A DNA stretch of 64,000 bases, taken from Dehalococcoidia bacterium (GTDB taxonomy: Bacteria; Chloroflexota; Dehalococcoidia; SZUA-161). Made by a program: the position numbers and the translations under genes. Of the stretch, positions 5,097-53,099 are shown in pieces (position 1 is the first letter of the stretch; every line of letters begins with the position of its first letter). The stretch spans positions 101 to 64,100 of the forward strand of contig DUEY01000004.1 in assembly GCA_011174795.1 (NCBI GenBank), given 5' to 3'. Below the pieces are notes generated by a model. The model searched no databases and was not told the origin of the DNA. It worked only from the letters and a program-made list of their open reading frames with translations.

Positions 5097-5110
5097 TCTA
5101 TCCCTCCTCC

Positions 5111-5755: not shown

Positions 5756-5801
5756 GCTTCACCCCCACTGAAGGCTGACGGCTGACAACCGTACTCCTGC
5801 A

Positions 5802-8864: not shown

Positions 8865-8865
8865 G

Positions 8866-9354
8866 CTATCCGCTGCCCTTTTTGTCCTCGAAGAGTTGAG
8901 CTACCTTCTTAGGATTCATGTTGCCATGGGTATCCTTTCCGATAACGATATTGGGTGCCAGGGCACAAACGCCTATACAGGCGACGGTCTCCAGTGTGTA
9001 CTCTAAGTCGGGGCTGGTCTGGCCTTCTTCGAGGCCAAGATGCTGCTTCACTAATTTTAATATAGTCTTCCCACCACGTACGTGGCACGCTGTGCCCCGA
9101 CACACCCTGACAACCCTTTTCCCTCGGGGCGTGGTATAGAGCTGTTCATAGAAAGTGATTACCCCCTGTACCTCTGACGGGAATAGCGCGAACGCTCGGG
9201 CTATGGGATTGATAGCCTCGGGAGGAATGTATCCGATCTCATCCTGAATCTCCTGAAGGAGAGGGATGAGGGGCCAACTCTGCTCACGGTAGCTATCTAT
9301 GATCTCAGCTACCCGCGTCATGTCGGGTTTGACTGTTTCTGGAGTCTTATCCAT
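8866..9354 (-). CDS. NuoE/HydC-like thioredoxin-fold [2Fe-2S] ferredoxin
   Basis: Motifs VRVCRGTACHVRGG ... ETVACIGVCALAPN. The gene overlaps the upstream stop by 8 nt and ends 1 nt before the next start. Confidence 0.85.
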   Translation of the reverse strand: MDKTPETVKPDMTRVAEIIDSYREQSWPLIPLLQEIQDEIGYIPPEAINPIARAFALFPSEVQGVITFYEQLYTTPRGKRVVRVCRGTACHVRGGKTILKLVKQHLGLEEGQTSPDLEYTLETVACIGVCALAPNIVIGKDTHGNMNPKKVAQLFEDKKGSG

Positions 9355-12037: not shown

Positions 12038-12107
12038 TGGCAGCCTCTATTAAACCCAGGGAATAGGGCTAGCTGTATGGCCCGAAACGCAACATAGGGA
12101 ATTAAGC

Positions 12108-12917
12108 TCAGCCAGAAGCTGGAGTAGGTCTTTCCAGACGCTTTCCTACGTAATGTACAGCCCTTATAGCATTCACCAGCTGTGAGCTGGCAGCCCGCTT
12201 GGGGATGAATCCATAAGCTCCCAGCTTCTCGGCGGCAAGTATGTTCTCCTCATCGTCATACTGAGATAACATCACAACTCTGGTTTTCGGATATTTTTTA
12301 TATATCTGCTTGGTCGCCTCCAGCCCGTTCATTTCCGGCATAACTATGTCCATTATCACAATATCCGGTGATAGCTCGCCCACCTTGTCCACTGACTCTT
12401 TCCCGTTCTCAGCTTGACCGACAACCTCGATGTCACTCTGCAATTCCAGCACTGACCTGATACCATCCCTGACTACCGAGTGGTCATCCACTATAAGCAC
12501 TCTTATGCGCTTAGTAGCCTTATCCAGAATGCTCTGGGCCCTCGAGGCCAGCGCACCTGGCTCTATTGGCTTGGCCACATAGTCCTCGGCCTCCATCAGC
12601 GCCGCTTCATCTCGCCTCCACCCTTTGACAAGTTGCTTTTCCGGTGGTGCATCCATGACGATGATGGGTAAATCCTTGGTCTTGGGATCCTCTCTCAGCC
12701 ACTGGTGCATTGCGAAGGCTTCCCCACGGGGACTCAGTGTACCCAGGATTACCAGGTCCGGGTTAATCGTCTTCATCATTTCCTGGGCTTCTTGCTTGGT
12801 GGAGGCTGTTACGACCTCACACACGTCGCTCTCCAGAGCGCCTTTCAAAGTCGAAGCAAACTCAGGTTCGTCATCGATAATCAGGATCTCTTTCTTCTCT
12901 TCTTGCTTTTCTCCCAT
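12108..12917 (-). CDS. Tandem-receiver protein (REC-REC, no output domain)
   Basis: REC1 is ILIIDDEP...PDLVILGTLSP...YVAKP, with Gly where the phospho-acceptor Asp is expected. REC2 is VLIVDDHSVVRDG...DIVIMDIVMPEMNG...VVMLSQ...GFIPK and looks canonical. A GGAGGTGG RBS is present. Confidence 0.85.
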   Translation of the reverse strand: MGEKQEEKKEILIIDDEPEFASTLKGALESDVCEVVTASTKQEAQEMMKTINPDLVILGTLSPRGEAFAMHQWLREDPKTKDLPIIVMDAPPEKQLVKGWRRDEAALMEAEDYVAKPIEPGALASRAQSILDKATKRIRVLIVDDHSVVRDGIRSVLELQSDIEVVGQAENGKESVDKVGELSPDIVIMDIVMPEMNGLEATKQIYKKYPKTRVVMLSQYDDEENILAAEKLGAYGFIPKRAASSQLVNAIRAVHYVGKRLERPTPASG

Positions 12918-13059
12918 GATCCACCTCCCACTAGCTGCTTTTTTCTATTGTAGTATTTATGATATGGCGCCTTTTTCATCGCGGGAATAGGGGCTTTCCC
13001 CTGAATATGGGAGGATTTTACCTTGAATCACAGGGGATAAAGCCCGACCGTCGAACGAT

Positions 13060-13095
13060 AAACGGAGGGCGAACCTCGGGGTTCGCCCTCCGTTT
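13060..13095 (-). terminator. Stem-loop downstream of the response-regulator gene
   Basis: aaacggagggcgaacc-tcgg-ggttcgccctccgttt gives a 16-bp perfect stem, 20 nt past the stop at 13116. The U-tract is weak. Confidence 0.5.
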
Positions 13096-13115
13096 GCGTT
13101 GCTGCGAGAGTGGGT

Positions 13116-13769
13116 TCACATGCCTATGATTCCCCGCCGTATGGCATACTTAACCAGTTCTATTGTACTGTGAACACCCAGCTTTTTCATGAGACTGGTT
13201 CTGTGCCCCTCGACCGTTTTTGAGGTTATGGATAATGTCTCCGCTATCTCTCGCGTCTTGTATCCTTCGGCAATTAATTTCAGCACGTCTCGCTCTCTAT
13301 CGGTCAACTGTTCATAAGGATCGGTCTTATCCTGCGTGAGCGCCAGTTGCTGGTAGTCTTCCACAAAAAGCTTTGCTATGGAAGGTGACAGATAGGATTC
13401 CCCTGCAAACACCGCCCGGATGCCGGACATAAGCTCGGAAGAGGCTGCCGTTTTGCTGACGAATCCATTGGCTCCGGCCTGGATAGCGGGGAAAACGTGT
13501 TCTTTATCGTCATACTGGGTAAGAACCAGGATCTTTATCTCAGGGAACTCCTTATGTATACGGCGTATAGCTTCCAAACCATTCATAACAGGCATGGCCA
13601 TATCCGTAAGTACGACATCTGGCAGTAGTTTGCCCGTCTTTTCCAGTGCTTCCCTTCCGTCAGCTGCCTCGCCCGCTACCTCTATATCTCCAGCGAGGGC
13701 AAGCAGTGTACAGATGCCGTCTCTAACGACGGTGTGGTCATCTACTATCAGTACCCTTATCTTCAGCAC
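13116..13769 (-). CDS. NarL/FixJ-family response regulator (REC plus LuxR-type HTH)
   Basis: VLIVDDHTVVRDG, DVVLTDMAMPVMNG and a C-terminal LTDRERDVLKLIAEGYKTREIAETLSITSKTVEGHRTSLMKKL. Confidence 0.9.
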   Translation of the reverse strand: MLKIRVLIVDDHTVVRDGICTLLALAGDIEVAGEAADGREALEKTGKLLPDVVLTDMAMPVMNGLEAIRRIHKEFPEIKILVLTQYDDKEHVFPAIQAGANGFVSKTAASSELMSGIRAVFAGESYLSPSIAKLFVEDYQQLALTQDKTDPYEQLTDRERDVLKLIAEGYKTREIAETLSITSKTVEGHRTSLMKKLGVHSTIELVKYAIRRGIIGM

Positions 13770-15060
13770 GCTCTTTACCCCAAAACACCGGCACTTTCAC
13801 TGTGATCTTGGTGCCCTTCCCGGGTTGTGACTGGATATCGCACGTGCCGCCGAGAAGGTTCGCCCTTTCTTTCATACTGAACAGTCCCCGCCCGCGGCCG
13901 CTTTCATCCACCTCAATCGGTCTTGATGCATCAAACCCTATACCGTCGTCCTCGATTTGCATTATGAACTCGTCCGAATCGCACTTCACATTTATTGTTG
14001 CGTTTTTAGCCTTTGAGTGCCAGGCTATATTTGCGATTGACCCCTGGGCGATGCGGTAGAGTGCGAATTCGACTTCTGAAGGTAAGCGTTCCTCCAGACC
14101 TTCGTAGTTCAAGGATAGATTGATGCCTGCTGGCTGAAGACGACTCTCGGCGTATTGGCGGATTGCGGGACCCAGCCCGAGGCTATCCAGAGCAGTCGGC
14201 CGGAGCGACTTCATTATTTTACTTATCTCAGAGCCGAGCTGAAGGGTGATATCATGGGCTTTACCGAGCTTTTCTTTGAACGCGGCATCGCCGAAGTTAG
14301 AGGCGTTAGCGACGTTCAGAAGTGCCTGCATGGTGAGTGAAAGACCGGTCAGCGACTGGCTGGTTTCATCGTGAAGTTCGCGGGCAACCCTGCCCCGCTC
14401 CATTTCCTGAGCAATCAACATGTAACGGGCAAGAAATCGGTAGTTCTCCCGTTCCTTTCTCAGTTGGTCATAGAGCTCCGCCTGCTCAATAGCAACACCT
14501 ACTTGGTCGCCGATTGCGTGCAGCAGATGCATATCGTCTTTGGTAAAATGGCGGGGCGAATGGCTGGCAACGTTTAGTACGCCCAGCACCGTGTCTTTGG
14601 CACGGAGTGGGACACTGATGAACGCCTTGAGGCCTTCTGTGCTTATCAGGTCGCGCCAGGCAGCGCGGGGGTCTGCGGAGATGTCTTCGAGAAGCACGGA
14701 CTTGCCGGTTTGAGCTACCCTTCCCGCAATCCCTTCACCTATGCCAAGGTGCATCTCCTCGGCATATTTATCGGACAGACCACGATAGACCCGGTAGGAG
14801 AGCGTCTGGGTTTGTTCGTCTATAAGCAGGATTCCTCCCACAGCTCCGTTCATAATCTCAAGAACGGTATCGAGAGCGACATTAAGGACGGCGTCGAGGT
14901 CCCACAGACCGCTGACTGCGGCCGAGACTCTGCTTAAGGCTAGAAGCTCGCCGTACGGCTTTTGTAGACTGCTTTCAGAGGCTTCTTCGTTTAACTGTAG
15001 GCTATCCTTCTCAGGGGTGGACTCGATATCCCCATCGCTTTCTGGTTCCATCCTCATCAT
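13738..15060 (-). CDS. GAF-domain sensor histidine kinase (HisKA_3 plus HATPase_c)
   Basis: H-box ARELHDETSQSL. The ATPase region reads DDGIGFD...GRGRGLFSMKERANLLGGTCDIQSQPGKGT, and a GAF-like region lies upstream. The start is ambiguous (ATG at 15105, 15060, 15057 or 15051). The ORF-track extension to 15501 overlaps the thiolase gene and is rejected. The gene overlaps the regulator start by 32 nt. Confidence 0.75.
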   Translation of the reverse strand: MMRMEPESDGDIESTPEKDSLQLNEEASESSLQKPYGELLALSRVSAAVSGLWDLDAVLNVALDTVLEIMNGAVGGILLIDEQTQTLSYRVYRGLSDKYAEEMHLGIGEGIAGRVAQTGKSVLLEDISADPRAAWRDLISTEGLKAFISVPLRAKDTVLGVLNVASHSPRHFTKDDMHLLHAIGDQVGVAIEQAELYDQLRKERENYRFLARYMLIAQEMERGRVARELHDETSQSLTGLSLTMQALLNVANASNFGDAAFKEKLGKAHDITLQLGSEISKIMKSLRPTALDSLGLGPAIRQYAESRLQPAGINLSLNYEGLEERLPSEVEFALYRIAQGSIANIAWHSKAKNATINVKCDSDEFIMQIEDDGIGFDASRPIEVDESGRGRGLFSMKERANLLGGTCDIQSQPGKGTKITVKVPVFWGKERAEDKGTDSR

Positions 15061-15218
15061 CTTTATCTCAGTGAATGCGATAAGCGTAAACGAAGCGCTC
15101 GTCATTGTCAACTTGTGCCCGCAAAATCTGCGCTGCGTTACTTTGGAGCAGGTAAAAAGAATCTGCCCAAGGAAACCCTTGGGCAGATTCTTTATTATAT
15201 GCCTTAGCCGCTCTGATT

Positions 15219-16397
15219 CTAGAGGCCGATGATGAGCACGCTGACGGTATTGCTTACGGGAATGCCACCCAGGTTGTGGGTCAGGCCCAGTTTCGGGTTT
15301 TTTATCTGCCGCTCGGCAGCTCTCCCCTGACACTGAAGGTACACCTCGTACAGCATCCGCAGACCGCTGGCGCCGATGGGGTGGCCGAATGATTTCAGGC
15401 CGCCATCGGGCTGCACCGGCAGGCCTCCATCCAGGTTGAAGAAACCCGACTCTATATCCGCCTTCACCTTGCCCCTCGGGCTGAACTCGAGGTCCTCGCA
15501 CGTAACGGCCTCGGTGATGCTGAAGCAGTCGTGAAGCTCGGCCATACTTATCTCTTCGCGGGGCTTGGTAATCCCGGCTTCGGTATAGGCAGCCTTCCCT
15601 GCTTCAACGGTTGCCCTCACCTGGGTGAAGTCGTAATCGGCTCTCAGTTCGCCCTCGCTGGGGCACACGGAAATCTGCAGCGCCTTGACATAAACAGGGT
15701 CGGGCCTGAACTCCTTTGCCCGGTCGGCGGGGACGACGATAGCCGCTGCTGCTCCATCGCTCACGCCGCAGCAATCGAAGAGGCCCAGGGGCCAGGCGAC
15801 TATTGGAGCGTTCATCACTTGCTCTATGGTTACCTCCCTGCGCAGGTGAGCCTTGGGGTTCAAAGTGCCGTTGTGATGGCTCTTCACCGAGACCGTCCCT
15901 ATCATCCTTTTACCTTCCTCGGGGCTCAAGCCATATACGGAGAAGTATGTGGTAGCCATCAAAGCAAACATCCCGGGCGCTGTTCGGTCAGGGTACCTGT
16001 TGCTGGGCAGGCTCTGCTGGTCGGGAAGCCCGCTGTATCCCGAATCCTTCAGCTTCTCGAAGCCGACGGCAAGGCATATATCGTAGGCTCCGGCTGCTAC
16101 AGCGTAGCAGGCGTTTCTGAAAGCATCCGAACCCGAGGCGCAGGCGTTCTCCACCCTGGTCACCGGTATATACTGAAGCTTCAGAGGGTCGGCGAGGCAG
16201 CGTCCGTCAAAGCCCGATACCCAGGTGCCGCCCCAGGCCGCCTCGATATCTTTGGGCTCTATCTTTGCGTCTTCGACAGCCTCTTTAGTCGCTTCGAATA
16301 TCAGGTCGTTCTTGCTCGCATCCCAGCGCTCGCCGAACTTCGTGCATCCCATGCCTATGATGGCAACTTTATCTCTAATGCCTTTGACGCTTCCCAT
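15219..16397 (-). CDS. SCP-x / archaeal / PhlC-type thiolase-like protein (copy 1)
   Basis: DKVAIIGMGCTKFGE, nucleophile motif VENACASGS, ELHDCFSITE, GHPIGASGLRM. An AAGGAGG RBS is present. Confidence 0.85.
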   Translation of the reverse strand: MGSVKGIRDKVAIIGMGCTKFGERWDASKNDLIFEATKEAVEDAKIEPKDIEAAWGGTWVSGFDGRCLADPLKLQYIPVTRVENACASGSDAFRNACYAVAAGAYDICLAVGFEKLKDSGYSGLPDQQSLPSNRYPDRTAPGMFALMATTYFSVYGLSPEEGKRMIGTVSVKSHHNGTLNPKAHLRREVTIEQVMNAPIVAWPLGLFDCCGVSDGAAAAIVVPADRAKEFRPDPVYVKALQISVCPSEGELRADYDFTQVRATVEAGKAAYTEAGITKPREEISMAELHDCFSITEAVTCEDLEFSPRGKVKADIESGFFNLDGGLPVQPDGGLKSFGHPIGASGLRMLYEVYLQCQGRAAERQIKNPKLGLTHNLGGIPVSNTVSVLIIGL

Positions 16398-16435
16398 GTA
16401 GCCTCCTTAACTTGTTTCTTCCGGATAAATTTGCA

Positions 16436-16508
16436 CCGTTCGCCCTGAGCCTGTCGAAGGGAGCCTTATGAAGGGCCGTTCATGGTTCGACAAGCTCACC
16501 ACGAACGG
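16436..16508 (+). repeat. Solo, degenerate copy of the palindromic core of the MITE-like element (copy A)
   Basis: ccgttcgccctgagcctgtcgaaggg[agccttatgaagggc]cgttcatggttcgacaagctcaccacgaacgg. It matches the cores at 18104-18159, 24114-24170 and 40694-40751 but carries a 15-nt internal insertion. Confidence 0.7.
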
Positions 16509-16511
16509 CAT

Positions 16512-17936
16512 CTAACACCGTATCGGCGTACACTTCCACCAGTAGTTGTGGATGCCCTCGAAGAAGTGGACCTTTCTGAAGGACACCTCCACCTCCATGC
16601 CGGTCTTTACATCGTCGGGGTCACGGTCCACCATATTGAATATAATCCTTCCGCCTTCTTCGAAATCGACCGCTGCGATGGTAGTCGGCGGGTCGATGCT
16701 GGCCGCCAGGTTGTCATGGGAGAAGGTATTAATCTTGGCTTTCTTTCTGGTGAAGTCGTAGGGCTCGAAATTATCCTGAGCCTGGCAGATGACACACACA
16801 CGCTGCGGCGGGTACTGGGGCGTTCCACAGCTCTTGCATCTGACCCCGTGCAGAGAAAGCCCCCAGTCCATATCCCTCCACAGCGCCGGCACGGATATGT
16901 GATTGATCGGGGGTCGTGGGGGCGGCTCGGTTTCCATCAGGCCGCGCCACTGCACGTACTTCAGGTAGTTCGGTATCATCTTCTTCGATTCCAGGTGACG
17001 CTTTATGCCTCTCCTGTCTTTGATTTTCTCGATGCCCTCGGTCACCTTGAGAATAAACACGTCGCAGCCATCGCCGTAGCCGACACACATGAGGTTGTCC
17101 CCGGCCTTGGCGTCCTCCAGCGATGCTACCAGCATCATCAGGGGAAGGGCGGACCCCGTATTGCCCACCGTCATGTACAGCGGATCCTGGAATTGGGCCA
17201 TGGGGTCAAACCCCATCTTTCCACCTGCCATGCCGAGCAGCCTGGGGTCGGGCGCGTAGATCGCGGCCTTCGTGATATCGCCTGGAGCCATGTTGTATTT
17301 CTGCAAGCCGGCGGCAACCGATGCGGGAACGATACGAAGGTAGCCGGCCTCCCGGACGAACCGCTCCTCCCAGAAGCGGACGAAAGTATCCTTGTCGGAG
17401 CGCCACATATCGTGGAACTCCTGGAATGCGTGATAGCTGCCGACAGCCTCAACCGCGACGTCGGATTTCGACACCAATAGGGCGGCTGCCCCATCGCCGA
17501 ATGACATCTCCTTGTCCCCGTTGGGGGCACCCATCCTGGTTTCCCCACAGGCAACCAGCACACAGCTTGCCGACCCCGCCTCAACGGCGTCGAGGGCTGC
17601 CCTCAGGGCATTGGTCCCTGACCTCAGGGAGCCGGCGAAGTCCATGGTCATCGTCTCCCTGCTCAGACCCAGCGCGCCCGCTACTATTGATGCCGCCTGC
17701 TTCTCCTTGTAAGGCGAGGTGGTCGAAGCGAAGTACAGACGGTCGACTTTCTGGGGGTCGATACCGGTCAGGCAGTCTCTGCCGGCTGCGACGGCCATTG
17801 TTATGCTGTCTTCGTCGTAGCTGGCAACGGCCTTCTCACCGGGAATGGGCAGCATACTGTCCCATGCATTCTTGATATCGGGGCGGCTTAGCCTGTAAAG
17901 GGGTATATAAGCGCCATACGATGCAATCCCTGCCAT
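16512..17936 (-). CDS. HMG-CoA-synthase-like (thiolase-fold) domain fused to a C-terminal DUF35 zinc-ribbon/OB-fold domain (copy 1)
   Basis: The start is placed at MAGIASYGAYIPLYRL (aa 54 of the ORF) with an AAGGAGG RBS. The C-terminal Zn ribbon is CKSCGTPQYPPQRVCVICQ. The N-terminal ORF-track extension runs into a repeat element. Confidence 0.8.
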   Translation of the reverse strand: MAGIASYGAYIPLYRLSRPDIKNAWDSMLPIPGEKAVASYDEDSITMAVAAGRDCLTGIDPQKVDRLYFASTTSPYKEKQAASIVAGALGLSRETMTMDFAGSLRSGTNALRAALDAVEAGSASCVLVACGETRMGAPNGDKEMSFGDGAAALLVSKSDVAVEAVGSYHAFQEFHDMWRSDKDTFVRFWEERFVREAGYLRIVPASVAAGLQKYNMAPGDITKAAIYAPDPRLLGMAGGKMGFDPMAQFQDPLYMTVGNTGSALPLMMLVASLEDAKAGDNLMCVGYGDGCDVFILKVTEGIEKIKDRRGIKRHLESKKMIPNYLKYVQWRGLMETEPPPRPPINHISVPALWRDMDWGLSLHGVRCKSCGTPQYPPQRVCVICQAQDNFEPYDFTRKKAKINTFSHDNLAASIDPPTTIAAVDFEEGGRIIFNMVDRDPDDVKTGMEVEVSFRKVHFFEGIHNYWWKCTPIRC

Positions 17937-18050
17937 TGAGCCTCCTTTTCGCGACTTTCGGTCATTATTATAACAGCGCGGCCACTCGCTCACAATCCCC
18001 CTCAGCTTCCCGCCGGATACGGATGTGCACGCCATGGGAGGGCCAGAGGA

Positions 18051-18213
18051 GGTACCGTTTGGTTTTAGTTGGTGTATATAGTTGAATTTAGGCAATTATT
18101 TTCCGTTCGCCCTGAGCCTGTCGAAGGGCGTTCATGGTTCGACAAGCTCACCACGAACGTTTTTAGAACACGGTACTTTGAGAATCATACTAACAATGAC
18201 CGAACGGTATACC
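18051..18213 (+). mobile_element. MITE-like element, copy B (~160 bp, terminal inverted repeats, palindromic core)
   Basis: The ends are ggtaccgtttgg...ccgaacggtatacc. The internal core is ccgttcgccctgagcctgtcgaagggcgttcatggttcgacaagctcaccacgaacg. It is near-identical to the copies at 24060 and 40645. Confidence 0.7.
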
Positions 18214-18310
18214 ACAGGATACATACTTGAGTCGGTCTACGGCGAAAGGTATACTACTGTGTACACGCAGAGCGAGCTCTATTCACAGTGCTGTTTCGGA
18301 GGTTGGTACT

Positions 18311-18715
18311 ATGCCAGTACAGTTTCCGTTAAAACCGAAAGGATTCAGCCCCTTCCTTGAAATGGTGGGTGTGACCTTTACAAAAGTCGGGGATGGACAA
18401 AGCAGGGCTGTCCTGAAAGTCACCGAGAAGCTGTTGAATTCCACCAGGATTGTGCACGGCGGAGCCACCTTCACGCTGGCTGATTGCGGTATGGGCGGGG
18501 CGCTCTTCTCGTGCCTGGAAGAGGGCGAGAGGGTGCGAACCGTGGAGACCAAGATCGCTTATTTCAAGGGGGTTAAATCAGGAACCCTTACCTGCGATTC
18601 CAGGGTGATTCACAGGAGCAGGAGCATTGCCGTGCTGGAATCGGAGATAAAGCAGAGGGGTCAGCTGGTCGCCAAGGCCCTGGGGACCTTTTCCATCTTC
18701 AAAGGAAAGGAATAA
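18311..18715 (+). CDS. PaaI-family hotdog-fold thioesterase
   Basis: ATG at 18311 preceded by GGAGG. Motifs NSTRIVHGGATFTLADCGMG and KALGTFSI. Confidence 0.8.
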   Translation: MPVQFPLKPKGFSPFLEMVGVTFTKVGDGQSRAVLKVTEKLLNSTRIVHGGATFTLADCGMGGALFSCLEEGERVRTVETKIAYFKGVKSGTLTCDSRVIHRSRSIAVLESEIKQRGQLVAKALGTFSIFKGKE

Positions 18716-18789
18716 TAACTACCCGGCACCGGACTCAGGGATAGCTTCCGACTCAAGTATCTATTGCAGGAAAATGCAATTCGCGCCTC

Positions 18790-19497
18790 TCAGCGCCGGG
18801 CATTTTCTCCGAGGCAATCGCTGGACGGAGTGAATGGGGTTTCTCTCCAGTACTTCCACCGCAAAATTCTTATATATTTTGCTCTGGCATAGAGCAGGGG
18901 ATTGAACACGGAGAGCCCTTTTTGCGCCACAGTATTCGAGCTATCTACGTTATAGCGCAATACGGATACACCCTTGTCCCTGACAAGCTGCAGCCTTTTA
19001 AACGAGCCGTATACCAGGAGCCCTTTTCCCCGGTACTTTGTCATCGTCATACCTCTGCCTGTGTATGCTTCGCCCCTCGAGAAGTTCACCCTTTGCCGGA
19101 GAGGGCTGATGGCTTCCTTGGCCTCTTCGTTCAGTGCTACCCACGCGATATGGGCGATTTCGCCGTTAACGAAAATGCAGGTGGCTATTGCTCCCCTGTC
19201 CAGCCTCTCCCTGGCTTTGCCAAAACGCTGGCGGAAATAGTAACCGGTAGCCGCTGCCAATTCATCGGCTTCGGCATTGCTGCAGATTGTCCTGAACGTG
19301 AAATTCTGTATACGGGGCAGGAAGTCGGCCTCGTTTAATTCACTGGTTTGGATTTCATAGAGATAGTAGCTGCCGTATCGGAAGAAAGGAACCTGCAGCA
19401 GGGCGTACTGAAAGCCACGCTGGAGCAGCGTTACGAAACCCTCCGCTCGCAGGATATCCCTGGCGCTCGCTGCCAGTTGGCTCAACCTGCCTGTCAT
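18790..19497 (-). CDS. GNAT-like acetyltransferase (divergent)
   Basis: An acetyl-CoA P-loop-like motif YRGKGL follows a beta-strand region (IAHIAWVAL). There is no stronger match by eye. Confidence 0.5.
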   Translation of the reverse strand: MTGRLSQLAASARDILRAEGFVTLLQRGFQYALLQVPFFRYGSYYLYEIQTSELNEADFLPRIQNFTFRTICSNAEADELAAATGYYFRQRFGKARERLDRGAIATCIFVNGEIAHIAWVALNEEAKEAISPLRQRVNFSRGEAYTGRGMTMTKYRGKGLLVYGSFKRLQLVRDKGVSVLRYNVDSSNTVAQKGLSVFNPLLYARAKYIRILRWKYWRETPFTPSSDCLGENARR

Positions 19498-19735
19498 ATT
19501 GTAGCGGCCTCGTGGATATTGAGAGGTTACCGTGCGATTGGTGATATGATATCACACAACGATAACAACATTACATGATAGGATGGTGTTTGGTGATGCA
19601 GAGTTAAACTCGGGATACAGGTTTCAGGGACGTCCGTGCAGAGCGTAACTACTAAATGAGGGTTCAGCTTGAAGTTGGGGGGAGGATGCCTGCGGTACTT
19701 CGGTACTCAGGGCGAAGCGGGTCTCCGGTCGAGCC

Positions 19736-20233
19736 TCACGCTTCCTCTTCGAGCAGTATCTCAGCAACGATACGGGATGCAGTCTCGACAGGGGCGCGGC
19801 ATTTGGCTATGCCCCCGATTTCGACGAATTCCATCTGTTGTGCCGGGTCCGAGAGGTCGTAGGTCCTGCCGAATATTTTCTTATGGATATGCCTGCATAC
19901 CAGGCTGCCGAACTCCTTCTCGAAGGCATCGCAGAATTTCGTGGCTCGCTCCATCGAGCCGGGGAGGTTGTCCAGAAACGCCGCCCCCTCGCTTCCCGTC
20001 AATATGCCCAGTGCCAGTAAGGCACCTGTTACGGCACCGCAGGTTTCGCCCCTCAGGGCAATGCCGGACATGGCGGTGAGTGCGTGCTGCGGTATGGCGC
20101 GAACTGCCGGGAAATCTTCCTGAAGCGCATAGATAGGGCTCTGGGCGCAGTTGCCGCTGACGGACTCCAGATACTCCCCACCCCTTTTCTGCACCCGCTT
20201 CAGGATTTCCTCCCTCGACGTGTGACCTGTCAA
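19736..20233 (-). CDS. C_GCAxxG_C_C family protein
   Basis: NCAQSPIYAL ... ETCGAVTGALLALG ... LVCRHI ... AKCRAP. TTG start with a GAAGGAG RBS, 20 nt downstream of the thiolase copy 2 stop. Confidence 0.75.
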   Translation of the reverse strand: MTGHTSREEILKRVQKRGGEYLESVSGNCAQSPIYALQEDFPAVRAIPQHALTAMSGIALRGETCGAVTGALLALGILTGSEGAAFLDNLPGSMERATKFCDAFEKEFGSLVCRHIHKKIFGRTYDLSDPAQQMEFVEIGGIAKCRAPVETASRIVAEILLEEEA

Positions 20234-20252
20234 AGGTCCGCTCCTTCGCCTG

Positions 20253-21458
20253 TCAAAGCCCGACGATGATGACGCTGACTATAGCCCGGTAAGGGATGCC
20301 GCCCAGGTTGTGGGTGAGGCCGTATTTGGGGTCCTTTATCTGCCGCTTATCGGCCCTGCCCTGGAGCTGAAGGTACATCTCGTAGACCATCCGTATCCCG
20401 GAGGCGCCGACAGGATGCCCGAAGCACTTCAATCCCCCGTCCGGTTGAATCGGCTGCGCTCCGTCCAGGTTGAATCGGCCGCCCATGATATCGTCCTTCA
20501 CCTTGCCCCTCGGGCTGAACTGCAGGTCCTCCATGGTCACCGCCTCGGTGATGGAGAAGCAGTCGTGAACCTCGGCCATGCTTATCTCATCGCGCGGGTT
20601 CTTTATACCTGCCTCTTCGTATGCCCTTGCACCGGCGCGGGTGGTGCACTCAACGTGCGTGTAGTCAAAGTCGTTGAACATCTCCTCCTCGCCCGAGGTC
20701 GCGGCGATTTGCAAAGCTTTGACGTATACGGGGTCGGGCCTGAAGTCCTTCGCCATGTCGGCGCGGCAGAGGATAGCCGCTGCCGCCCCGTCGCTTACAC
20801 CGCAGCAGTCGAACAGTCCTAGGGGCCAGGCGACGATGGGGGCGTTCATTATCTGTTCGACCGTAACCTCGCGGCGGAGGTGGGCCTTGGGGTTGAGGGC
20901 GCCGTTGTGGTGGCTCTTGGCGGAGACCGTGGCCAGCATCCTCTTGCCCTCCTCGGGGCCGATGCCGTAGCGGTTGAAGTACCTCGTAGCGAGCATGGCG
21001 TACATCCCCGGCGCGGTCTGATTGGCGGCGATAATCCTGTGCTTGGTGCCGATAACCGCCCAGTGGGAGAACTCGGGAAGACCGCCGTAGCCGGTGTCCT
21101 TGAGCTTCTCAATGCCGAGCGCCATGGCGATATCGCATGCTCCCGATGCTATGGCGTAGCATGCGCCCCTTATCGCCTCCGAGCCGCTGGCGCACATGTT
21201 CTCGACCTTTGTCACGGGTATGAACGGCAGCTTCAGTGCTTGAGATAAAGGCAGGGCGCTGTCCCCGATGTTGACCGAGGTAAACTCGGGGCCTCCCTGC
21301 CAGGCTGCCTGTATATCCTTCTTCTCTATCCCCGCATCCTCAATGGCTTCCTTGAAAGCATCTATCATCAGGTCCTCGGGGCTCTGGTTCCAGAGCTCCC
21401 CGAACCGGGTGCATCCCATTCCGATGATGGCTACCTTGTCCTTTATTCCCTCTGGCAC
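20253..21458 (-). CDS. SCP-x / archaeal / PhlC-type thiolase-like protein (copy 2)
   Basis: DKVAIIGMGCTRFGE, VENMCASGS, EVHDCFSITE, GHPVGASGIRM. GTG start with an AAGGAGG RBS. It is a clear paralogue of 15219..16397. Confidence 0.85.
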   Translation of the reverse strand: MPEGIKDKVAIIGMGCTRFGELWNQSPEDLMIDAFKEAIEDAGIEKKDIQAAWQGGPEFTSVNIGDSALPLSQALKLPFIPVTKVENMCASGSEAIRGACYAIASGACDIAMALGIEKLKDTGYGGLPEFSHWAVIGTKHRIIAANQTAPGMYAMLATRYFNRYGIGPEEGKRMLATVSAKSHHNGALNPKAHLRREVTVEQIMNAPIVAWPLGLFDCCGVSDGAAAAILCRADMAKDFRPDPVYVKALQIAATSGEEEMFNDFDYTHVECTTRAGARAYEEAGIKNPRDEISMAEVHDCFSITEAVTMEDLQFSPRGKVKDDIMGGRFNLDGAQPIQPDGGLKCFGHPVGASGIRMVYEMYLQLQGRADKRQIKDPKYGLTHNLGGIPYRAIVSVIIVGL

Positions 21459-21510
21459 TTTCGCCTCCTTCTATGCCTGAATCTGAGTCTCTCCCTAATC
21501 TGAGGCTGAA

Positions 21511-22953
21511 TCACGCCCTCGGCGGCATCGCTTTCCAGAAGTAACCGTGAATGCCGCGCACCTGGTCGGCGTACTTTTTCCTGAAGCTCATCTCCACCGG
21601 CATATCGACGCTGAGCGATTCCATGTCACAATCGGTGAGGTTGAAGGCGAACCTCCCGCCTTCTTCGAAGCTTATGATACCGTACATCTCCGGCGGACTG
21701 GCGCTGAATGCGAGGCTGTCGCTCGTGTAGCTGAACAGCCTTCCCTTCTTGTCGGAGAAGCGGTACTCTTCCATCTCGTCGATGGCGCCACAGGCGGGAT
21801 TCACGCATACCCGCTGGTAGGGGTACTGCGGTGTGCCGCAGCGTTTGCACTTCGTCCCGACAAGGCCGAGGATGGTCTTTCGCTCCCGCCACATCACCGA
21901 TACCATGGACGGGCCGACCTCTCCACGGAACCCCATCTCCAGGGGGATTACATCGCGGAATGAAGAGTATCTCTCGTAGCTGGTCAGCTCTTTCCTGGAT
22001 TCCAGATGCTTTTTAATCCCCCTTCTGCCCTTAATCTTCTTTATTTTATCGGTTACCTCGAAGAACATGGCATCGCTGCCATTGCCGTAGCTGGCGACGA
22101 GTATCCTGTCCCCCGGCTTGGCTTCTTCGAGTGCAGCGACCAGCATCATCAGGGAGTGAGCGGTGCCGGTATCGCCTATGGTGGTGAGAATCTCCTGCTG
22201 AACCTGCTCGGGTTCGAGTTGCAGCCGCTTCGCGATCGCACCGTGCTCCCTGAGGTAAACGCAGGGAAAGATGATTTTAGCGAAGTCCTTGGTCTCCAGT
22301 GAGTATTTCTTTAACAGTCCGGCGATAGCCTCGGGGATGAACTTGGTATAAGCTTCGTCGCGAATCCACCTGTCCTCCCAGATGCGGTTGTACTTGTCGC
22401 CGTCGGCTCGCCACTGGTCCATAAAATCATAGGAAAGGGAGTATGAGCCCTTGAGGTCGGCGATAACGTCCTTATTCCCTATCATGAGGGCGGCAGCGCC
22501 CTCCCCGAACATCACCTCCTGAAAGCTGCCGGCTTTCCCCGGGCGGCAGTCGGAGGCGCAGACCATGATGTTCTCGCCTGTTCCCGCTTCTATGGCGTCG
22601 CAGGCGGAGAGCAGTGCGCCTGTGCCTGCTTTTATGGAATCGCTGAAGTCACAGGTTCGAATAGCGGGCTGCAGGTCGAGCGCGGTGGCGATTATCCCTG
22701 CATTCTGCCGCTCACGGTAGGGTGGGGTTGTGGTGGCGAGGTAGATGCCGTCCACCTTGTCCCGTTCGAGCCCGTTCAGGCAATCTGTAGCGGCAGCTAC
22801 TGCCATGGTGAGGCTGTCCTCGTCGTAGTTGGCTACAGCCTTCTCTCCGGGTGCGGAAGCTGCCGAAGTGGACCATCCCGTAGCGGCGGAGATGGTCTTG
22901 CGGCTTATCCTCTGTAGCGGGATGTAAGCACCGTAGGATGTAATCCCTGCCAT
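21511..22953 (-). CDS. HMG-CoA-synthase-like domain fused to DUF35 zinc-ribbon/OB-fold (copy 2)
   Basis: MAGITSYGAYIPLQRI. The Zn ribbon is CKRCGTPQYPYQRVCVNPAC. An AAGGAGG RBS is present. It is a paralogue of 16512..17936. Confidence 0.8.
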   Translation of the reverse strand: MAGITSYGAYIPLQRISRKTISAATGWSTSAASAPGEKAVANYDEDSLTMAVAAATDCLNGLERDKVDGIYLATTTPPYRERQNAGIIATALDLQPAIRTCDFSDSIKAGTGALLSACDAIEAGTGENIMVCASDCRPGKAGSFQEVMFGEGAAALMIGNKDVIADLKGSYSLSYDFMDQWRADGDKYNRIWEDRWIRDEAYTKFIPEAIAGLLKKYSLETKDFAKIIFPCVYLREHGAIAKRLQLEPEQVQQEILTTIGDTGTAHSLMMLVAALEEAKPGDRILVASYGNGSDAMFFEVTDKIKKIKGRRGIKKHLESRKELTSYERYSSFRDVIPLEMGFRGEVGPSMVSVMWRERKTILGLVGTKCKRCGTPQYPYQRVCVNPACGAIDEMEEYRFSDKKGRLFSYTSDSLAFSASPPEMYGIISFEEGGRFAFNLTDCDMESLSVDMPVEMSFRKKYADQVRGIHGYFWKAMPPRA

Positions 22954-23070
22954 TTGGCCTCCTTTCGTCGCCCGAAAATTATAACACCCAGCCTAGTTAC
23001 CCGCAATCATCGCCCGCGTGATTGGCGGGAGGCTCGGCAATCTCAAGGGGTGGTGGATATTGACGGGGGG

Positions 23071-23180
23071 ATTGCCTCGCAATGATGGAAATTGGGTTCT
23101 CCCTCCCCTGGTGGGAGGGAGTTAGAGGGAGGGGGAATGACTTCACCCTCACCCCAACCCTCTCCCCTCAAGGGAGAGGG
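23071..23180. repeat. GC-rich composite of short hairpins (intergenic repeat type)
   Basis: Three hairpins: attgc-ctc-gcaat (23071-23083); tccctccc-ctggt-gggaggga (23100-23120); ccctctccc-ctcaa-gggagaggg (23158-23180). Only a related attgc...gcaat fragment is seen elsewhere, at 62222-62243. Confidence 0.45.
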
Positions 23181-23215
23181 AGCTTGGCAAAGGTATATCG
23201 ATGCGTAAAGAAGCT

Positions 23216-23995
23216 TCAGCCGGAGATGAACTCTTCGATGGCGGAGAAGTACTGCTTCAAGCCTACCATAAGAATGGTGTTGTGGCCGGCACCGGGGATG
23301 GTGAGCAGCTTCTTGTCTTTCGAGCCGATGTTCTCGTGAAGCACCAGAGCTTGCTCATAGGGGATTACTTCATCGTACTCCCCGTGTATTATCAGGGCGG
23401 GTAGGGTGATGGAGCGAATGTTATCCATAGTCAGCTTCTCGAACTCCTCCACCAGGGGCGACTGGAAGACGGGTATCAGGAAGCCCAGTAGACGCCCCGC
23501 GCTGGCGAAGCCGCTCTCTATAATCAGTCCCTTCAATTCCTGTTGATAGGTCGATGCCAGCTCCAGAGCGGACAGGCTGCCCAGAGACCGGCCCATGATG
23601 AACAGGGGACCATTGTAGCCGCTGTCGCGAAGGGTATCGCGAAAGTACTTGAAAATAACATGAGCATCGGCAACCGTACTGGCGAAGGACGGCGTGCCCG
23701 TGCTCTGACCGTAGCCGCGGTAGTCAGCCACGAAGAGATTAGCGCCTATCCCGTTATAAAGGGTGGCGATATCGTCGTAGTCGTAGACCACCTCGCCGTT
23801 GCCGTGGAAGTAGAGGATGGAGGGTGCGCTTTCGCTTGCGTGGTAGAAACGGCAGGATATGGATACGCCTTCTTCGATGGGTACCGAGTGGTCGGTGGCG
23901 CCGGGCGGTGGGGGCGTCCAGTCCTGCCTGGGGTAGAAGACGAACATGAGAATATGCGGCTGGTCTAGCTTAGAGTAATCGATCCTGTTTGACAT
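23216..23995 (-). CDS. Alpha/beta-fold hydrolase
   Basis: Nucleophile elbow GRSLGS, oxyanion-region HGNGE, and a C-terminal GAGHN. Confidence 0.75.
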   Translation of the reverse strand: MSNRIDYSKLDQPHILMFVFYPRQDWTPPPPGATDHSVPIEEGVSISCRFYHASESAPSILYFHGNGEVVYDYDDIATLYNGIGANLFVADYRGYGQSTGTPSFASTVADAHVIFKYFRDTLRDSGYNGPLFIMGRSLGSLSALELASTYQQELKGLIIESGFASAGRLLGFLIPVFQSPLVEEFEKLTMDNIRSITLPALIIHGEYDEVIPYEQALVLHENIGSKDKKLLTIPGAGHNTILMVGLKQYFSAIEEFISG

Positions 23996-24059
23996 GACAG
24001 CGAGCCTATTGTAGCACCTGGTTCAATCTTGTTCAATTTACCGAAGCTATGCTGGCATC

Positions 24060-24218
24060 GGTACCGTTCGGTTTTAGTTGATATATATGTAGTTGAGTTT
24101 AGGCAATTATTTTCCGTTCGCCCTGAGCCTGTCGAAGGGCGTTCATGGTTCGACAAGCTCACCACGAACGGTTTTAGAACACGATACTTTAAGAATCATA
24201 CCAACCATGACCAAATGG
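24060..24218 (+). mobile_element. MITE-like element, copy C, flanked by a 12-bp direct repeat
   Basis: It runs ggtaccgttcgg...gaccaaatgg with the same core as copies B and D. TATGCTGGCATC is present at 24048-24059 and 24219-24230. Confidence 0.75.
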
Positions 24219-24290
24219 TATGCTGGCATCAGGGGTATTGACAGAAGGTGAGCAGCGGTTCTAGCATGGTCAGTACCAGGAGGAGCGGTG

Positions 24291-25085
24291 ATGGTTGAGG
24301 GTGAGGTTCTACATGTTGCTCTATATCCACCGGATACGGTTGATACAGAACAGGTGAAGAAGGTGGCGGAGGTTGTCCACAAGGAACCCTACGACACGCG
24401 CCTGCTCATGGTCGGGGAGATGCCGAGGCTCATTGCCCACTGCCACGACATGCCGATGGCTGAATCCCTGGCCCGGAGCCTGGGAGAGCTGGGCCTAGTC
24501 GCATTCATCTGCCGTGATTCAGAGCTTCGCAGGCATTCACAGCGGTTTATGGCAAGGACCATGGAGTTCGCGGAGGGAGAGGTTGTATTCCGGGACAGGG
24601 GTGGACAGGTGGAACGAGTGGGGTCGGGGGATGCCTTCCTGATTGTGAAGGGGAAGACGGAGACGCAAACGGAGGCAGAGTCGACGGATATGAAGATGAA
24701 GGTGAATTGGCGTGCAACCCTGCTGACAGGCGGTATCCCCATCATGCGCTCGGTCAGGGAGAAAACCGGTGAGGAGTCAATTGAAACCGAGCTCTTCGCC
24801 AGGGTCTACAACCGGAAATCGTCTGAGCGCTGCATTGAGGTCATACAGCATCAGGTCGACTACTCGTTTCTCGGCGCGGATATGGCTCTCTCCACGCTGG
24901 CGAACTTCAACACCTTCGTGTCAAAGCTCCAGGAGACGTTCCCGCAGGCAGCTTTCAATGACAGGCTGATGAAGCCTTTCAAGGCGGATATCCCCTCCTC
25001 CGGTGGCCAGGAGAGCATTGAGATAAACTGCAATATGCTCTACCTGTACCACATGGCTGTGAGCGGCGCTGGCCCGCCGGGGTAG
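24291..25085 (+). CDS. Hypothetical protein
   Basis: An ORF with a GGAGGAG RBS 5-6 nt upstream of the ATG at 24291. No family is recognised. Confidence 0.5.
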   Translation: MVEGEVLHVALYPPDTVDTEQVKKVAEVVHKEPYDTRLLMVGEMPRLIAHCHDMPMAESLARSLGELGLVAFICRDSELRRHSQRFMARTMEFAEGEVVFRDRGGQVERVGSGDAFLIVKGKTETQTEAESTDMKMKVNWRATLLTGGIPIMRSVREKTGEESIETELFARVYNRKSSERCIEVIQHQVDYSFLGADMALSTLANFNTFVSKLQETFPQAAFNDRLMKPFKADIPSSGGQESIEINCNMLYLYHMAVSGAGPPG

Positions 25086-25290
25086 GCTGATATCATCATT
25101 GAGAGCCAAGCGAAGCAATCGACTTGTTCCCCCCGGGACGACCCAGAGGGTCACTCATACCCCCGTCTCAACCCCGACCTGGATTTGACGCCATTAGCCC
25201 CGCCTGCTTATAATTGGTGTTTAGTGTGGGTTCGAACCCCACTGCATAGACTGTAGAAAATATAAATCAGACTGAGGAGGAAGAAAGCGT

Positions 25291-26064
25291 ATGACAACCG
25301 AGGAACAGGAACTGATTGTCGAGAAGAAGGAAGACGGAAAGATATGGATTGTTACCCTCAACCGACCTGACAAGAGGAACGCTCTTACGCTGGATATGAT
25401 GTATGACCTTGAGGATACCTGGAAGGAATACCAGAATGATGAGAATTCCCGCGTGGCCATCGTAACCGGCGCCGGGGACAAGGCGTTCTGCGCCGGAGCC
25501 GACCTGCTGACGCCGCCGAAAAAGGAGCGGCCGGGCCCCTTCCGGATTCCCGCCTTCGGGCCGGAGGACGTCTGGAAGCCGGTTATTGCCGCCATCAACG
25601 GGCATTGCATCGCCGGCGGCGCCTTGATTGCGCATGACTGCGATATCCGCATCGCTGCCGAGCACGCCGAGTTCGGTGTAGCCGAGGCCATGAGGAATAT
25701 GCCGGCGAGCTGGGTGCGCGACCTCACCCTGCATATGCACATAGGTCACTGTATGGAGCTCGTTCTCTGGGGCGACCAGCGGGTCAGCGCCCAGCGTGCC
25801 TATGAGATAGGGTTCTACAACAGGGTCGTGCCTGCGGAGAAGCTTATGGATGAGGCTATGGAGTGGGCAGACCGTATGTTGTACCTGGCGCCACGCGCGG
25901 TGTGGAACTTCAAGGAGATAATCAAGCGCGGTGCCTTCATGGAGCCCAAGCTGGCCCGGATATTCGGCCAGGCGCTGGAGCAGAACCTCAGGGGCATGGA
26001 GGACAGCGCTGAGGCGGGGGCAGCCTTCCGGGAGAAGAGGAAACCCGTTTTCAAGAACAAGTAG
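25291..26064 (+). CDS. Enoyl-CoA hydratase/isomerase (crotonase) family
   Basis: LNRPDKRNAL, FCAGADL, AAINGHCIAGG, and a C-terminal FREKRKPVF. Confidence 0.85.
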   Translation: MTTEEQELIVEKKEDGKIWIVTLNRPDKRNALTLDMMYDLEDTWKEYQNDENSRVAIVTGAGDKAFCAGADLLTPPKKERPGPFRIPAFGPEDVWKPVIAAINGHCIAGGALIAHDCDIRIAAEHAEFGVAEAMRNMPASWVRDLTLHMHIGHCMELVLWGDQRVSAQRAYEIGFYNRVVPAEKLMDEAMEWADRMLYLAPRAVWNFKEIIKRGAFMEPKLARIFGQALEQNLRGMEDSAEAGAAFREKRKPVFKNK

Positions 26065-26887
26065 CTGAGTTCTGACAACGGGGGCAGAAATAGGTGCCCC
26101 GGTTGCGGACAGGAATGCGTTCGATAGGGGCGGAGCAGACCTTGCAGGCCTGCCCGCCCCTGTGTGCTACAGAGAAGGCGTCCTGCTGGCTTCCTTCTTC
26201 GCCGCCGGGACGGCGGTAATCGCTGAATGTAGCCCCGGCGTTGCCAATGGCCTGAACGAGCACTTTGCGCATGGCTTCATGCAGCTTTTTTATCTCCGCG
26301 AGGGTGAGGCTGTTAGCCGGCCTGAGGGGATGGATACCGGCAGCGAACAGCGCTTCGTCGGCGTACATGTTGCCGATGCCGGCGATGAGCTTCTGCTCGC
26401 AGAGCGCTGCTTTGATGGGGGCTTTTCGCCTGCTTAGCCTCTCTTTGAAGACCTCGGATGTGAAGCGGGGGTCGAGTGGCTCGGGGCCGAGCTTGCACTC
26501 CAGTTCGCATTCATCCTTCACCAGCGACGCGGTGCCCAGCTTGCGCCGGTCGCTGAAAACGAGCTCGGTGCCGTTGTCCAGCTCGAAAATCGCCGTTGCG
26601 TAGCGGTCTGTCTCCGGGGATGCGGCGTTCCTGTCCCTGAGCAGCAGCGAGCCGGTCATCCTCATGTGCAGCACCAGCGACTCGCCGCCCTTGAGGCGGA
26701 AGATGAGGTGCTTGCCCCTTCTTGCTATCTCATCGATGCGTTTGGCGGGAAGCTGCCGGCAAAGCTCCTCGGCAGAGGGCTGGAGCACCATCCTTGGCCA
26801 GAAGAAGGTAACGCCGGTAAAACGACGACCTTCCACCATGGGGCGAAGGTCGTTCTTGATGGTCTCGACTTCAGGCAACTCGGGCAT
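26051..26887 (-). CDS. mutM: Formamidopyrimidine-DNA glycosylase
   Basis: N-terminus MPELPEVETI. The C-terminal zinc finger is CKVCSAPIERIPVRNRGTYFCPRCQ. Confidence 0.9.
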   Translation of the reverse strand: MPELPEVETIKNDLRPMVEGRRFTGVTFFWPRMVLQPSAEELCRQLPAKRIDEIARRGKHLIFRLKGGESLVLHMRMTGSLLLRDRNAASPETDRYATAIFELDNGTELVFSDRRKLGTASLVKDECELECKLGPEPLDPRFTSEVFKERLSRRKAPIKAALCEQKLIAGIGNMYADEALFAAGIHPLRPANSLTLAEIKKLHEAMRKVLVQAIGNAGATFSDYRRPGGEEGSQQDAFSVAHRGGQACKVCSAPIERIPVRNRGTYFCPRCQNSATCS

Positions 26888-33362: not shown

Positions 33363-33391
33363 GGTTCCATCCCTTCATCCCCGCAAACGGT

Positions 33392-34189: not shown

Positions 34190-34231
34190 CGGCGTCTCCT
34201 TTTTCCCGATATACTTGCCTAAAACGTGTTC

Positions 34232-35023: not shown

Positions 35024-35056
35024 ATCCTTTCTTGTTTAAAATCGGCTATCGCCGTA

Positions 35057-36844: not shown

Positions 36845-36857
36845 TGCCTCCTGCTAC

Positions 36858-38039: not shown

Positions 38040-38057
38040 ATCTCCTCGCCGTCGGGA

Positions 38058-53089: not shown

Positions 53090-53099
53090 GGAGAGGTAA

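Follow-up and report, generated by a model that had tools for sequence, protein, structure and literature searches.

Tandem thiolase gene pairs with fused HMGS-like::DUF35 partners that lack the HMG-CoA synthase tetrad in a Dehalococcoidia bacterium

Introduction

What does a protein that resembles hydroxymethylglutaryl-CoA (HMG-CoA) synthase (HMGS) do when the catalytic residues of that enzyme are gone? The question is raised by two gene pairs of an uncultured Dehalococcoidia bacterium (GenBank assembly GCA_011174795.1), each encoding a thiolase (thl1, thl2) and a protein in which an HMGS-like domain is fused to a DUF35 domain (fus1, fus2). Both pairs lie on the minus strand of a 64,000-nucleotide stretch of contig DUEY01000004.1 (positions 101 to 64,100), referred to below as the window. 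An initial annotation, made from the sequence by eye, had suggested that the fused proteins may be non-catalytic, PhlA-like partners of an SCP-x/archaeal-type thiolase and not HMG-CoA synthases. Our analysis supports this view, as judged by the loss of the catalytic tetrad in all homologues examined, the intact active sites of the adjoining thiolases and the published biochemistry of a complex of the same kind.

That complex, PfACAT/HMGS-DUF35 of P. fluorescens, comes from a genome-mining survey of bacteria that recovered 1,030 loci in which HMGS, ACAT and DUF35 domains occur, 1,001 of them outside any polyketide synthase (PKS) or non-ribosomal peptide synthetase (NRPS) context (Liao et al., Nat Commun 2026;17:2196, PMC12960953). 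Its fused HMGS-DUF35 protein lacks the Glu-Cys-His-Asn (E-C-H-N) tetrad and its ACAT keeps the Cys, HDxF and GHx motifs; in vitro it cleaved acetoacetyl-CoA thiolytically, an activity abolished by the ACAT mutation H294Y, and from acetyl-CoA it produced neither HMG-CoA nor acetoacetyl-CoA (PMC12960953). The authors viewed the class as an 'evolutionary intermediate' and assigned no pathway to it (PMC12960953). The kind was first described biochemically in January 2026, and the window pairs are new, tandem-paralogous members of it from Dehalococcoidia. In the literature we found no report of a dead-HMGS::DUF35 fusion in Dehalococcoidia, nor one under the terms HMG-CoA synthase-like, SCPx or OB-fold.

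Results

The fus2 gene (21511..22953, minus strand) encodes a 480-residue protein whose HMGS-like domain (residues 1-335, nt 21949-22953) is joined through a low-confidence linker (residues 335-356, disordered in the AlphaFold2 model) to a DUF35 domain made up of a zinc ribbon and an OB fold (residues 356-480, nt 21514-21888). The assignment draws on the translation, Pfam, NCBIfam, PDB alignments and the AlphaFold2 model. Downstream lies thl2 (20253..21458, minus strand), which has a GTG start and encodes a 401-residue thiolase of the SCP-x/archaeal type. The paralogous pair consists of fus1 (16512..17936, minus strand; 474 residues, with the HMGS-like domain at nt 16935-17936 and DUF35 at nt 16515-16889) and thl1 (15219..16397, minus strand), which encodes a 392-residue thiolase of the same type as its paralogue thl2. 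The spacing between fused gene and thiolase gene is 114 nt for thl1 and 52 nt for thl2. An AAGGAGG Shine-Dalgarno sequence is found 5-8 nt upstream of all four starts. The mechanically called open reading frame (ORF) of fus1 extends to a TTG at 18095; the start at the ATG at 17936 is backed by its Shine-Dalgarno sequence and by alignment with fus2 and the fus2 orthologues. The coordinates and strand first proposed for the four genes were exact, and the fusion of HMGS-like and DUF35 parts was borne out by Pfam, NCBIfam and PDB matches on both proteins and by the AlphaFold2 model.

The N-terminal domain of fus1 and fus2 is HMGS-like by NCBIfam PRK04262, with scores of 211 and 237 bits that fall under the curated cut-off of 244, and the two proteins reach 155 and 178 bits against TIGR00748, for which the cut-off is 353. 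Their C-terminal part matches zf-ChsH2 and OB_ChsH2_C, which jointly make up DUF35 (Pfam/NCBIfam). Both thiolases carry Thiolase_N and Thiolase_C_1 (Pfam) and score 583 and 608 bits against the NCBIfam equivalog PRK06157 (cut-off 403).

HMG-CoA synthase (EC 2.3.3.10) is defined by a catalytic Glu, Cys and His (plus Asn), a set that is found in neither fus1 nor fus2. We read the tetrad positions from HMMER and independent MAFFT alignments to archaeal HMGS (PDB 6ESQ chain I), and archaeal numbering is used throughout. E82 is replaced by Thr in both proteins, C114 by Leu in fus1 and Ile in fus2, and H238 by Tyr in fus1 and Pro in fus2; N270 is kept in fus1 and is Asp in fus2. The HMM alignment thus confirms the loss of the triad that had been proposed by eye, and the HMGS-like domain has no catalytic Cys. 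The earlier calls of Thr for the Glu and of Leu or Ile for the Cys agree with the new alignments, as does Tyr for the His of fus1, but the Ile that had been aligned with the His in fus2 is really Pro, the result of a register slip of two residues. The slip leaves the conclusion intact because there is no His in either register. The partner thiolases have retained their motifs, as had been noted for the nucleophile and HDCF: thl1 has its Cys nucleophile in VENACASGS and thl2 in VENMCASGS, and both have HDCF and GHP.

By sequence the nearest solved structures to fus1 and fus2 are PhlA (5M3K_A) and archaeal HMGS (6ESQ_I), with E values of 1e-30 to 1e-37, and the C-terminal part of the fused proteins matches the archaeal DUF35 protein (6ESQ_E), BbsA (7pxp_A) and the DUF35 domain of ChsH2. 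For thl2 the PDB matches are the archaeal acetoacetyl-CoA thiolase (6esq_A, 9e-62), BbsB (9e-40) and PhlC (5e-19). The AlphaFold2 model of fus2 has a pLDDT of 76.5 and a pTM of 0.84, and a fold search with it ranked the HMGS of 6ET9/6ESQ (TM 0.88) above PhlA-type proteins (0.84) and MucA (0.82), followed by bacterial MvaS and FabH. The similarity of the window proteins to archaeal HMGS, PhlA and the archaeal thiolase is above chance.

We then assembled about 250 homologues in all, comprising 90 genome-derived sequences, 150 representatives of 50%-identity clusters and annotated homologues. With fus2 as the query, a search of 1.84 billion cluster representatives gave 3,593 matches at E<=1e-3 and 687 at E<=1e-30. 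The best 150 have 34-51% identity, and since nearly all of them are 465-495 residues long and align end to end, the fused architecture is common to them. The tetrad is lost in 90/90 genome homologues and in 150/150 cluster representatives. Glu82 and Cys114 are present in none of these 150; Thr occupies the Glu82 position in 124 and Asp or Asn the Asn270 position in 88, and across homologues the Cys114 position holds Leu, Gln, Ile, Thr or Val. The four Cys of the zinc ribbon (C369, C372, C383 and C388 in fus2) are retained in 135-139 of the 150. Adjoining thiolases show an invariant Cys, HDCF and GHP (75/75). A thiolase homologue is present in 70 of 80 loci, mostly directly downstream of the fused gene, and most of the other 10 loci are cut by contig ends.

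Loss of the tetrad was also seen in Sphingomonas, Azoarcus sp. KH32C, Variovorax, Novosphingobium, two Rhodococcus, Streptomyces and plasmid pHV4 of Haloferax volcanii, so that the homologues checked span Chloroflexota, Proteobacteria, Actinobacteria and haloarchaea; Desulfobacterota, too, have members of the family. On pHV4 of H. volcanii DS2 (L087, 5808-8536 of the locus) a thiolase gene is followed by the gene for a 522-residue fused dead-HMGS::DUF35 protein, annotated as 'zinc ribbon domain-containing protein'. As this copy resides on a haloarchaeal megaplasmid, the family spans both prokaryotic domains. Copies 63-66% identical to the Dehalococcoidia protein also occur on archaea-binned contigs of Ca. 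Methanolliviera (L021, L049) and Thermoplasmata (L030) metagenome-assembled genomes (MAGs), where they reflect either horizontal transfer or mis-binning.

Three cluster representatives carry additional domains. P0124 (911 residues) continues after the dead HMGS and DUF35 into a short-chain dehydrogenase/reductase (SDR) and an SCP2 domain, P0150 (800 residues) into an SDR, and P0123 (722 residues) has two SCP2 domains. SDR dehydrogenases and SCP2 are domain types of the peroxisomal proteins MFE-2 and SCPx, and by this analogy the fusions would link the family to β-oxidation of bulky or branched acyl-CoAs. We set aside P0195, in which the protein is seemingly fused to ATP-grasp and molybdopterin-binding domains, as an apparent chimera of assembly or gene calling.

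Placed in a neighbour-joining tree with the archaeal and Phl systems, all fused proteins form a clade separate from PhlA and archaeal HMGS, with fus1 and fus2 in separate deep subclades. The two fused proteins are 44% identical and the two thiolases 66%, values that mark both sets of paralogues as old. Dehalococcoidia/Chloroflexota MAG contigs carry the nearest relatives of fus2 (74-84% identity), and several MAGs have two or three further fused-gene copies on other contigs. The tandem fus2-thl2-fus1-thl1 arrangement is kept in related MAGs. Several related loci collectively give the order PolA, Fpg, enoyl-CoA hydratase (ECH, opposite strand), alpha/beta hydrolase, fus2, thl2, fus1, thl1, histidine kinase and response regulators: L007, L011, L012 and L014 cover PolA or Fpg through thl1, and L001 covers fus2 through two response regulators.

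Across the syntenic genomes the HMGS-like::DUF35 orthologues (74-84% identity) are conserved to a degree comparable with PolA (73-77%). In comparisons of the window with three syntenic orthologue sets, dN/dS was 0.08-0.14 for the HMGS-like domain and 0.05-0.06 for the thiolases; these values are approximate, dS being about 1 and near saturation. The dead HMGS-like domain is thus under purifying selection, evolving about twice as fast as its catalytic partner. We considered a decaying pseudogene and rejected it, as the dN/dS of about 0.1 and the intact ORFs in all relatives speak against decay.

Outside this syntenic group, the recurrent order in more distant Dehalococcoidia loci is AMP-forming acyl-CoA ligase, fused gene, thiolase and acyl-CoA dehydrogenase (ACAD), often with SDR and ECH genes near. 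AMP-ligase homologues occur in 24 of the 80 loci and ACAD homologues in 21. In annotated bacterial plasmid contexts the thiolase gene comes immediately after the fused gene in 7/7 cases, some of them overlapping. On H. volcanii pHV4 the gene order is reversed, the two genes overlap, and HADH and ECH genes adjoin paaK. The Sphingomonas context has SDR and MaoC genes; in Azoarcus a CoA-transferase family gene lies just downstream, with AMP ligase, electron-transfer flavoprotein, SDR and MaoC genes further out. The Rhodococcus and Variovorax contexts both include genes for ring-hydroxylating dioxygenase, ECH and ACAD, to which Rhodococcus adds an AMP ligase, and Variovorax adds SDR, alpha/beta hydrolase and CoA-transferase genes. 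These two clusters resemble the ipf ibuprofen genes in having dioxygenase genes beside the fused gene and the thiolase, with the AMP-ligase in Rhodococcus.

Within the window, an alpha/beta-fold hydrolase gene (Hydrolase_4/Abhydrolase_1; 23216..23995, minus strand) lies directly upstream of fus2, identified by Pfam and with sub-threshold NCBIfam matches only. Of the 16 closest loci, 12 (L002-L007, L010-L014 and L016) have a hydrolase of this kind upstream of fus2, and one likewise precedes the fused gene in Variovorax SRS16; possibly it is part of the same pathway as the fus/thl pairs. A divergent crotonase-family ECH gene (25291..26064, plus strand) is syntenic in relatives, with up to 91% identity. 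In related MAGs the two pairs are 170-880 nt apart, whereas in the window a 2.2 kb insert (18096-20252) separates them. The insert encodes a hotdog-fold thioesterase (18227-18715, plus strand), a 235-residue ORF without a family match (18790-19497, minus strand) and a C_GCAxxG_C_C protein (19736-20233, minus strand) that starts 19 nt after thl2. No homologue of any of the three was found between the pairs in related MAGs, and the spacer is therefore variable.

Downstream of thl1 there is a two-component system (12108..15105, minus strand; Pfam), syntenic in the closest relative (L001), which comprises a GAF-HisKA_3-HATPase histidine kinase (13738 to about 15105, minus strand), a LuxR-type response regulator (13116-13769, minus strand) and a double-receiver protein (12108-12917, minus strand). 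It is a candidate regulator. An extended -10-like box, TGTTATAAT, is found at 22978..22986 (minus strand), about 25 nt upstream of the fus2 start, and an identical box at 17967-17975 (minus strand), about 25-30 nt upstream of fus1. The two boxes suggest that each pair may have its own promoter. A promoter/terminator consensus scan of 12000-26200 did not rise above shuffled expectation, though it picked up the fus1 box, and for this reason we inferred operon boundaries from the spacing, the Shine-Dalgarno sites and the two boxes.

With NCBIfam, neither the alpha/beta hydrolase and the ECH nor two family-less ORFs received a specific name, so that the nearest genes give no clue to the substrate. 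No PKS or NRPS genes came up when the large ORFs of the 64 kb window were annotated with Pfam. The duplicated pairs had been described initially as adjoining CoA-thioester genes. The genes immediately beside them (the alpha/beta hydrolase, the thioesterase and the ECH) are less informative than this implied, and the full β-oxidation cluster (31647-40493), with FadE, a type-I thiolase of its own and an HCDH-ECH fusion, is 9 kb away. In the same cluster an acetoacetate-decarboxylase-family gene (33392-34189, minus strand) is located between a long-chain acyl-CoA ligase gene and an SDR gene.

Two further groups of genes in the window were recorded. A redox cluster (4197-12037, minus strand) encodes methylenetetrahydrofolate reductase and its C-terminal-domain partner (DUF5981), a 1,020-residue NuoF-like/GltD-like fusion, a NuoE-like 2Fe-2S protein and a formate-dehydrogenase-like molybdopterin subunit; it looks Wood-Ljungdahl-associated and is possibly electron-bifurcating. 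At 51773-55096 (plus strand) a lysine-2,3-aminomutase-like radical SAM gene is followed by two D-Ala-D-Ala-ligase-like ATP-grasp genes, which may represent a pathway for a β-lysine-derived peptide or solute.

Discussion

Each pair probably encodes a thiolase complex for the catabolism of 3-oxoacyl-CoAs, in which one subunit is a non-catalytic scaffold, a reading to which we give a probability of about 0.72. It draws on the ligase, ACAD, SDR and ECH contexts, the SDR and SCP2 fusions and the published thiolysis taken together. In this model thl1 and thl2 would carry out all of the chemistry with the Cys nucleophile, the His of HDCF and the His of GHP, as in archaeal/SCP-x-type thiolases and BbsB. 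The fused proteins would descend from two subunits of the archaeal thiolase/HMGS/DUF35 complex, HMGS and DUF35, joined in one chain, and most likely act as an obligatory structural subunit in which the zinc ribbon and OB fold of DUF35 clamp the thiolase, while the dead thiolase-fold domain may complete an inter-subunit chamber for CoA and acyl binding and support solubility. In a β-oxidation-like pathway that degrades non-standard carboxylic acids (branched, alicyclic or aryl-substituted), the complexes would probably catalyse the thiolytic step; a role with plain fatty acids or in mevalonate synthesis is improbable. Since the paralogues are old and both are kept in synteny, it is plausible that the two pairs have two substrate specificities, as had been suggested from the duplication. 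They would then probably take two different 3-oxoacyl-CoAs, which could be successive intermediates of one pathway.

Comparison with characterised systems helps to place the pairs. From PfACAT/HMGS-DUF35 the window genes differ in forming two ancient tandem paralogous pairs, in the tetrad Asn kept by fus1 and in their origin from an uncultured Dehalococcoidia bacterium. The archaeal complex has the same three modules and provides both the best HMGS structural match and the best thiolase match, and its zinc ribbon is kept here. In contrast to the window proteins, its HMGS is active and is separate from DUF35, and its role is anabolic (mevalonate) whereas the context of the dead-HMGS family is catabolic. 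PhlACB (PDB 5M3K/5MG5) and MucABC (9VBO/9VBT) likewise combine a dead HMGS-like subunit (PhlA, MucA), DUF35 and a thiolase-like catalytic subunit, and need complex formation for activity; the thiolase-like subunit of MucABC is insoluble or inactive on its own (PMC12960953). They are set apart from the window pairs by a catalytic subunit (PhlC, MucB) that lacks HDxF, by small-molecule acceptors, by a separate DUF35 and by their PKS or NRPS clusters. The benzoylsuccinyl-CoA thiolase BbsAB (PDB 7PXP), IpfDE of ibuprofen degradation and the Sulfolobus KT/DUF35 complex pair an HDxF-type thiolase with a DUF35 zinc-ribbon/OB partner, which is obligatory, and act on bulky or unusual acyl-CoAs in β-oxidation-like pathways. 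The window pairs have the same combination, four zinc-binding Cys included. However, the partner in those systems is DUF35 alone (about 130-150 residues), and the window proteins add an N-terminal dead thiolase-fold domain of about 335 residues.

Several points weigh against a catabolic thiolase complex. The likeness to PfACAT/HMGS-DUF35 (an HMGS-like domain fused to DUF35, the lost tetrad, an adjacent thiolase with Cys, HDxF and GHx, and neighbours free of PKS and NRPS genes) rests on identical architecture and motifs, and we infer homology to the P. fluorescens proteins from the full-length fusion that almost every one of the top 150 cluster representatives displays. Complex formation by the window proteins, and with it their scaffold role, is deduced from their relatives; the dN/dS values are approximate, for the reason given above; and the neighbours in the window (alpha/beta hydrolase, ECH, thioesterase and two-component system) define no pathway. 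The conserved Thr at the Glu82 position and Asp or Asn at the Asn270 position could mean that the pocket still binds something or supports residual chemistry. Finally, by analogy with the Sulfolobus KT/DUF35 complex, which condenses well, a biosynthetic role is possible.

The last two points lead to the rival explanations that deserve most attention, both of which we regard as unlikely. The pairs could be condensing complexes that make acetoacetyl-CoA or longer 3-oxoacyl-CoAs for an acyl carrier protein-independent fatty-acid or reverse β-oxidation route, the dead HMGS being a docking platform for the next enzymes. The S. acidocaldarius KT/DUF35 complex, to which a reductase and a dehydratase are recruited, indeed condenses 60-fold more efficiently than a thiolase acting alone (bioRxiv 10.1101/2024.07.05.601840), and the SDR-fused relatives P0124 and P0150 fit a thiolase-reductase assembly in either direction. 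However, the P. fluorescens complex made no acetoacetyl-CoA from acetyl-CoA (PMC12960953), the recurrent neighbours are acyl-CoA ligases and ACADs, which point in the catabolic direction, together with ring-hydroxylating dioxygenases in aerobes, and an enoyl-CoA reductase is not conserved nearby. Somewhat less likely still is a new active site in the HMGS-like domain, for example one built on Thr82 and Asp/Asn270, that would perform acyl transfer, hydrolysis or a retro-Claisen/aldol reaction on the substrate or product of the thiolase. The pocket is non-random at these two positions and the domain is under purifying selection, but Cys114 has no conserved nucleophile (Cys, Ser or His) in its place, and constraints from an interface or chamber explain the conservation equally well. 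Moreover, all catalysis in PhlACB and MucABC maps to the thiolase-like subunit, and a single ACAT mutation kills the P. fluorescens activity (PMC12960953).

The remaining two explanations can be largely set aside. A Friedel-Crafts C-acyltransferase of the PhlACB/MucABC type, acting on a small-molecule acceptor, is suggested by PhlA being the top or second PDB sequence match of the fused proteins and, as MucA does, lacking the tetrad (PMC12960953). It is largely refuted by the HDCF motif kept in thl1, thl2 and all 75 homologues but lacking as HDxF from PhlC and MucB (PMC12960953), by the weak similarity of thl2 to PhlC and by the absence of PKS and NRPS genes among the Pfam-annotated large ORFs of the window; the tree, too, puts the clade of fused proteins apart from PhlA, and we consider this explanation very improbable. 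That the proteins are genuine HMG-CoA synthases of the mevalonate pathway has in its favour the database name 'hydroxymethylglutaryl-CoA synthase' and the sub-threshold matches to HMGS models. Here Glu, Cys and His are all gone and the scores are under the curated cut-offs, mutation of the tetrad abolishes HMG-CoA synthesis by the archaeal enzyme, and the P. fluorescens homologue makes no HMG-CoA (PMC12960953). The loss of the tetrad refutes this explanation at the sequence level, and its chance of being correct is negligible.

Cross-phylum and haloarchaeal conservation, a dN/dS of about 0.1, β-oxidation operon contexts and the SDR and SCP2 fusions give the class the look of a catabolic family that is old and under selection, rather than of an intermediate without function. 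A more far-reaching proposal, which we offer tentatively and consider rather doubtful as a whole, is that these proteins form an ancient, cross-domain family of specificity and scaffold subunits, through which an archaeal-type thiolase becomes dedicated to the catabolism of bulky acyl-CoAs. The fossil HMGS pocket would be re-used in the acyl/CoA chamber, in analogy to the ketosynthase/chain-length factor (KS/CLF) pair, and the family would have radiated in Dehalococcoidia to several copies per genome, with tandem pairs forming either two complexes that act on successive intermediates or a mixed hetero-complex.

The basic discovery of the class has been published, and what the present analysis adds is context and distribution rather than a new principle. 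Thousands of proteins of this family are publicly named 'hydroxymethylglutaryl-CoA synthase', a name that can falsely suggest a mevalonate pathway in, for example, Dehalococcoidia. The family also offers a clean natural example of a pseudo-enzyme domain under selection as the partner of an active, paralogue-like enzyme. It is large, expanded in subsurface Dehalococcoidia and located in acyl-CoA catabolic operons, and knowledge of its substrates would clarify the diet of these abundant sediment bacteria.

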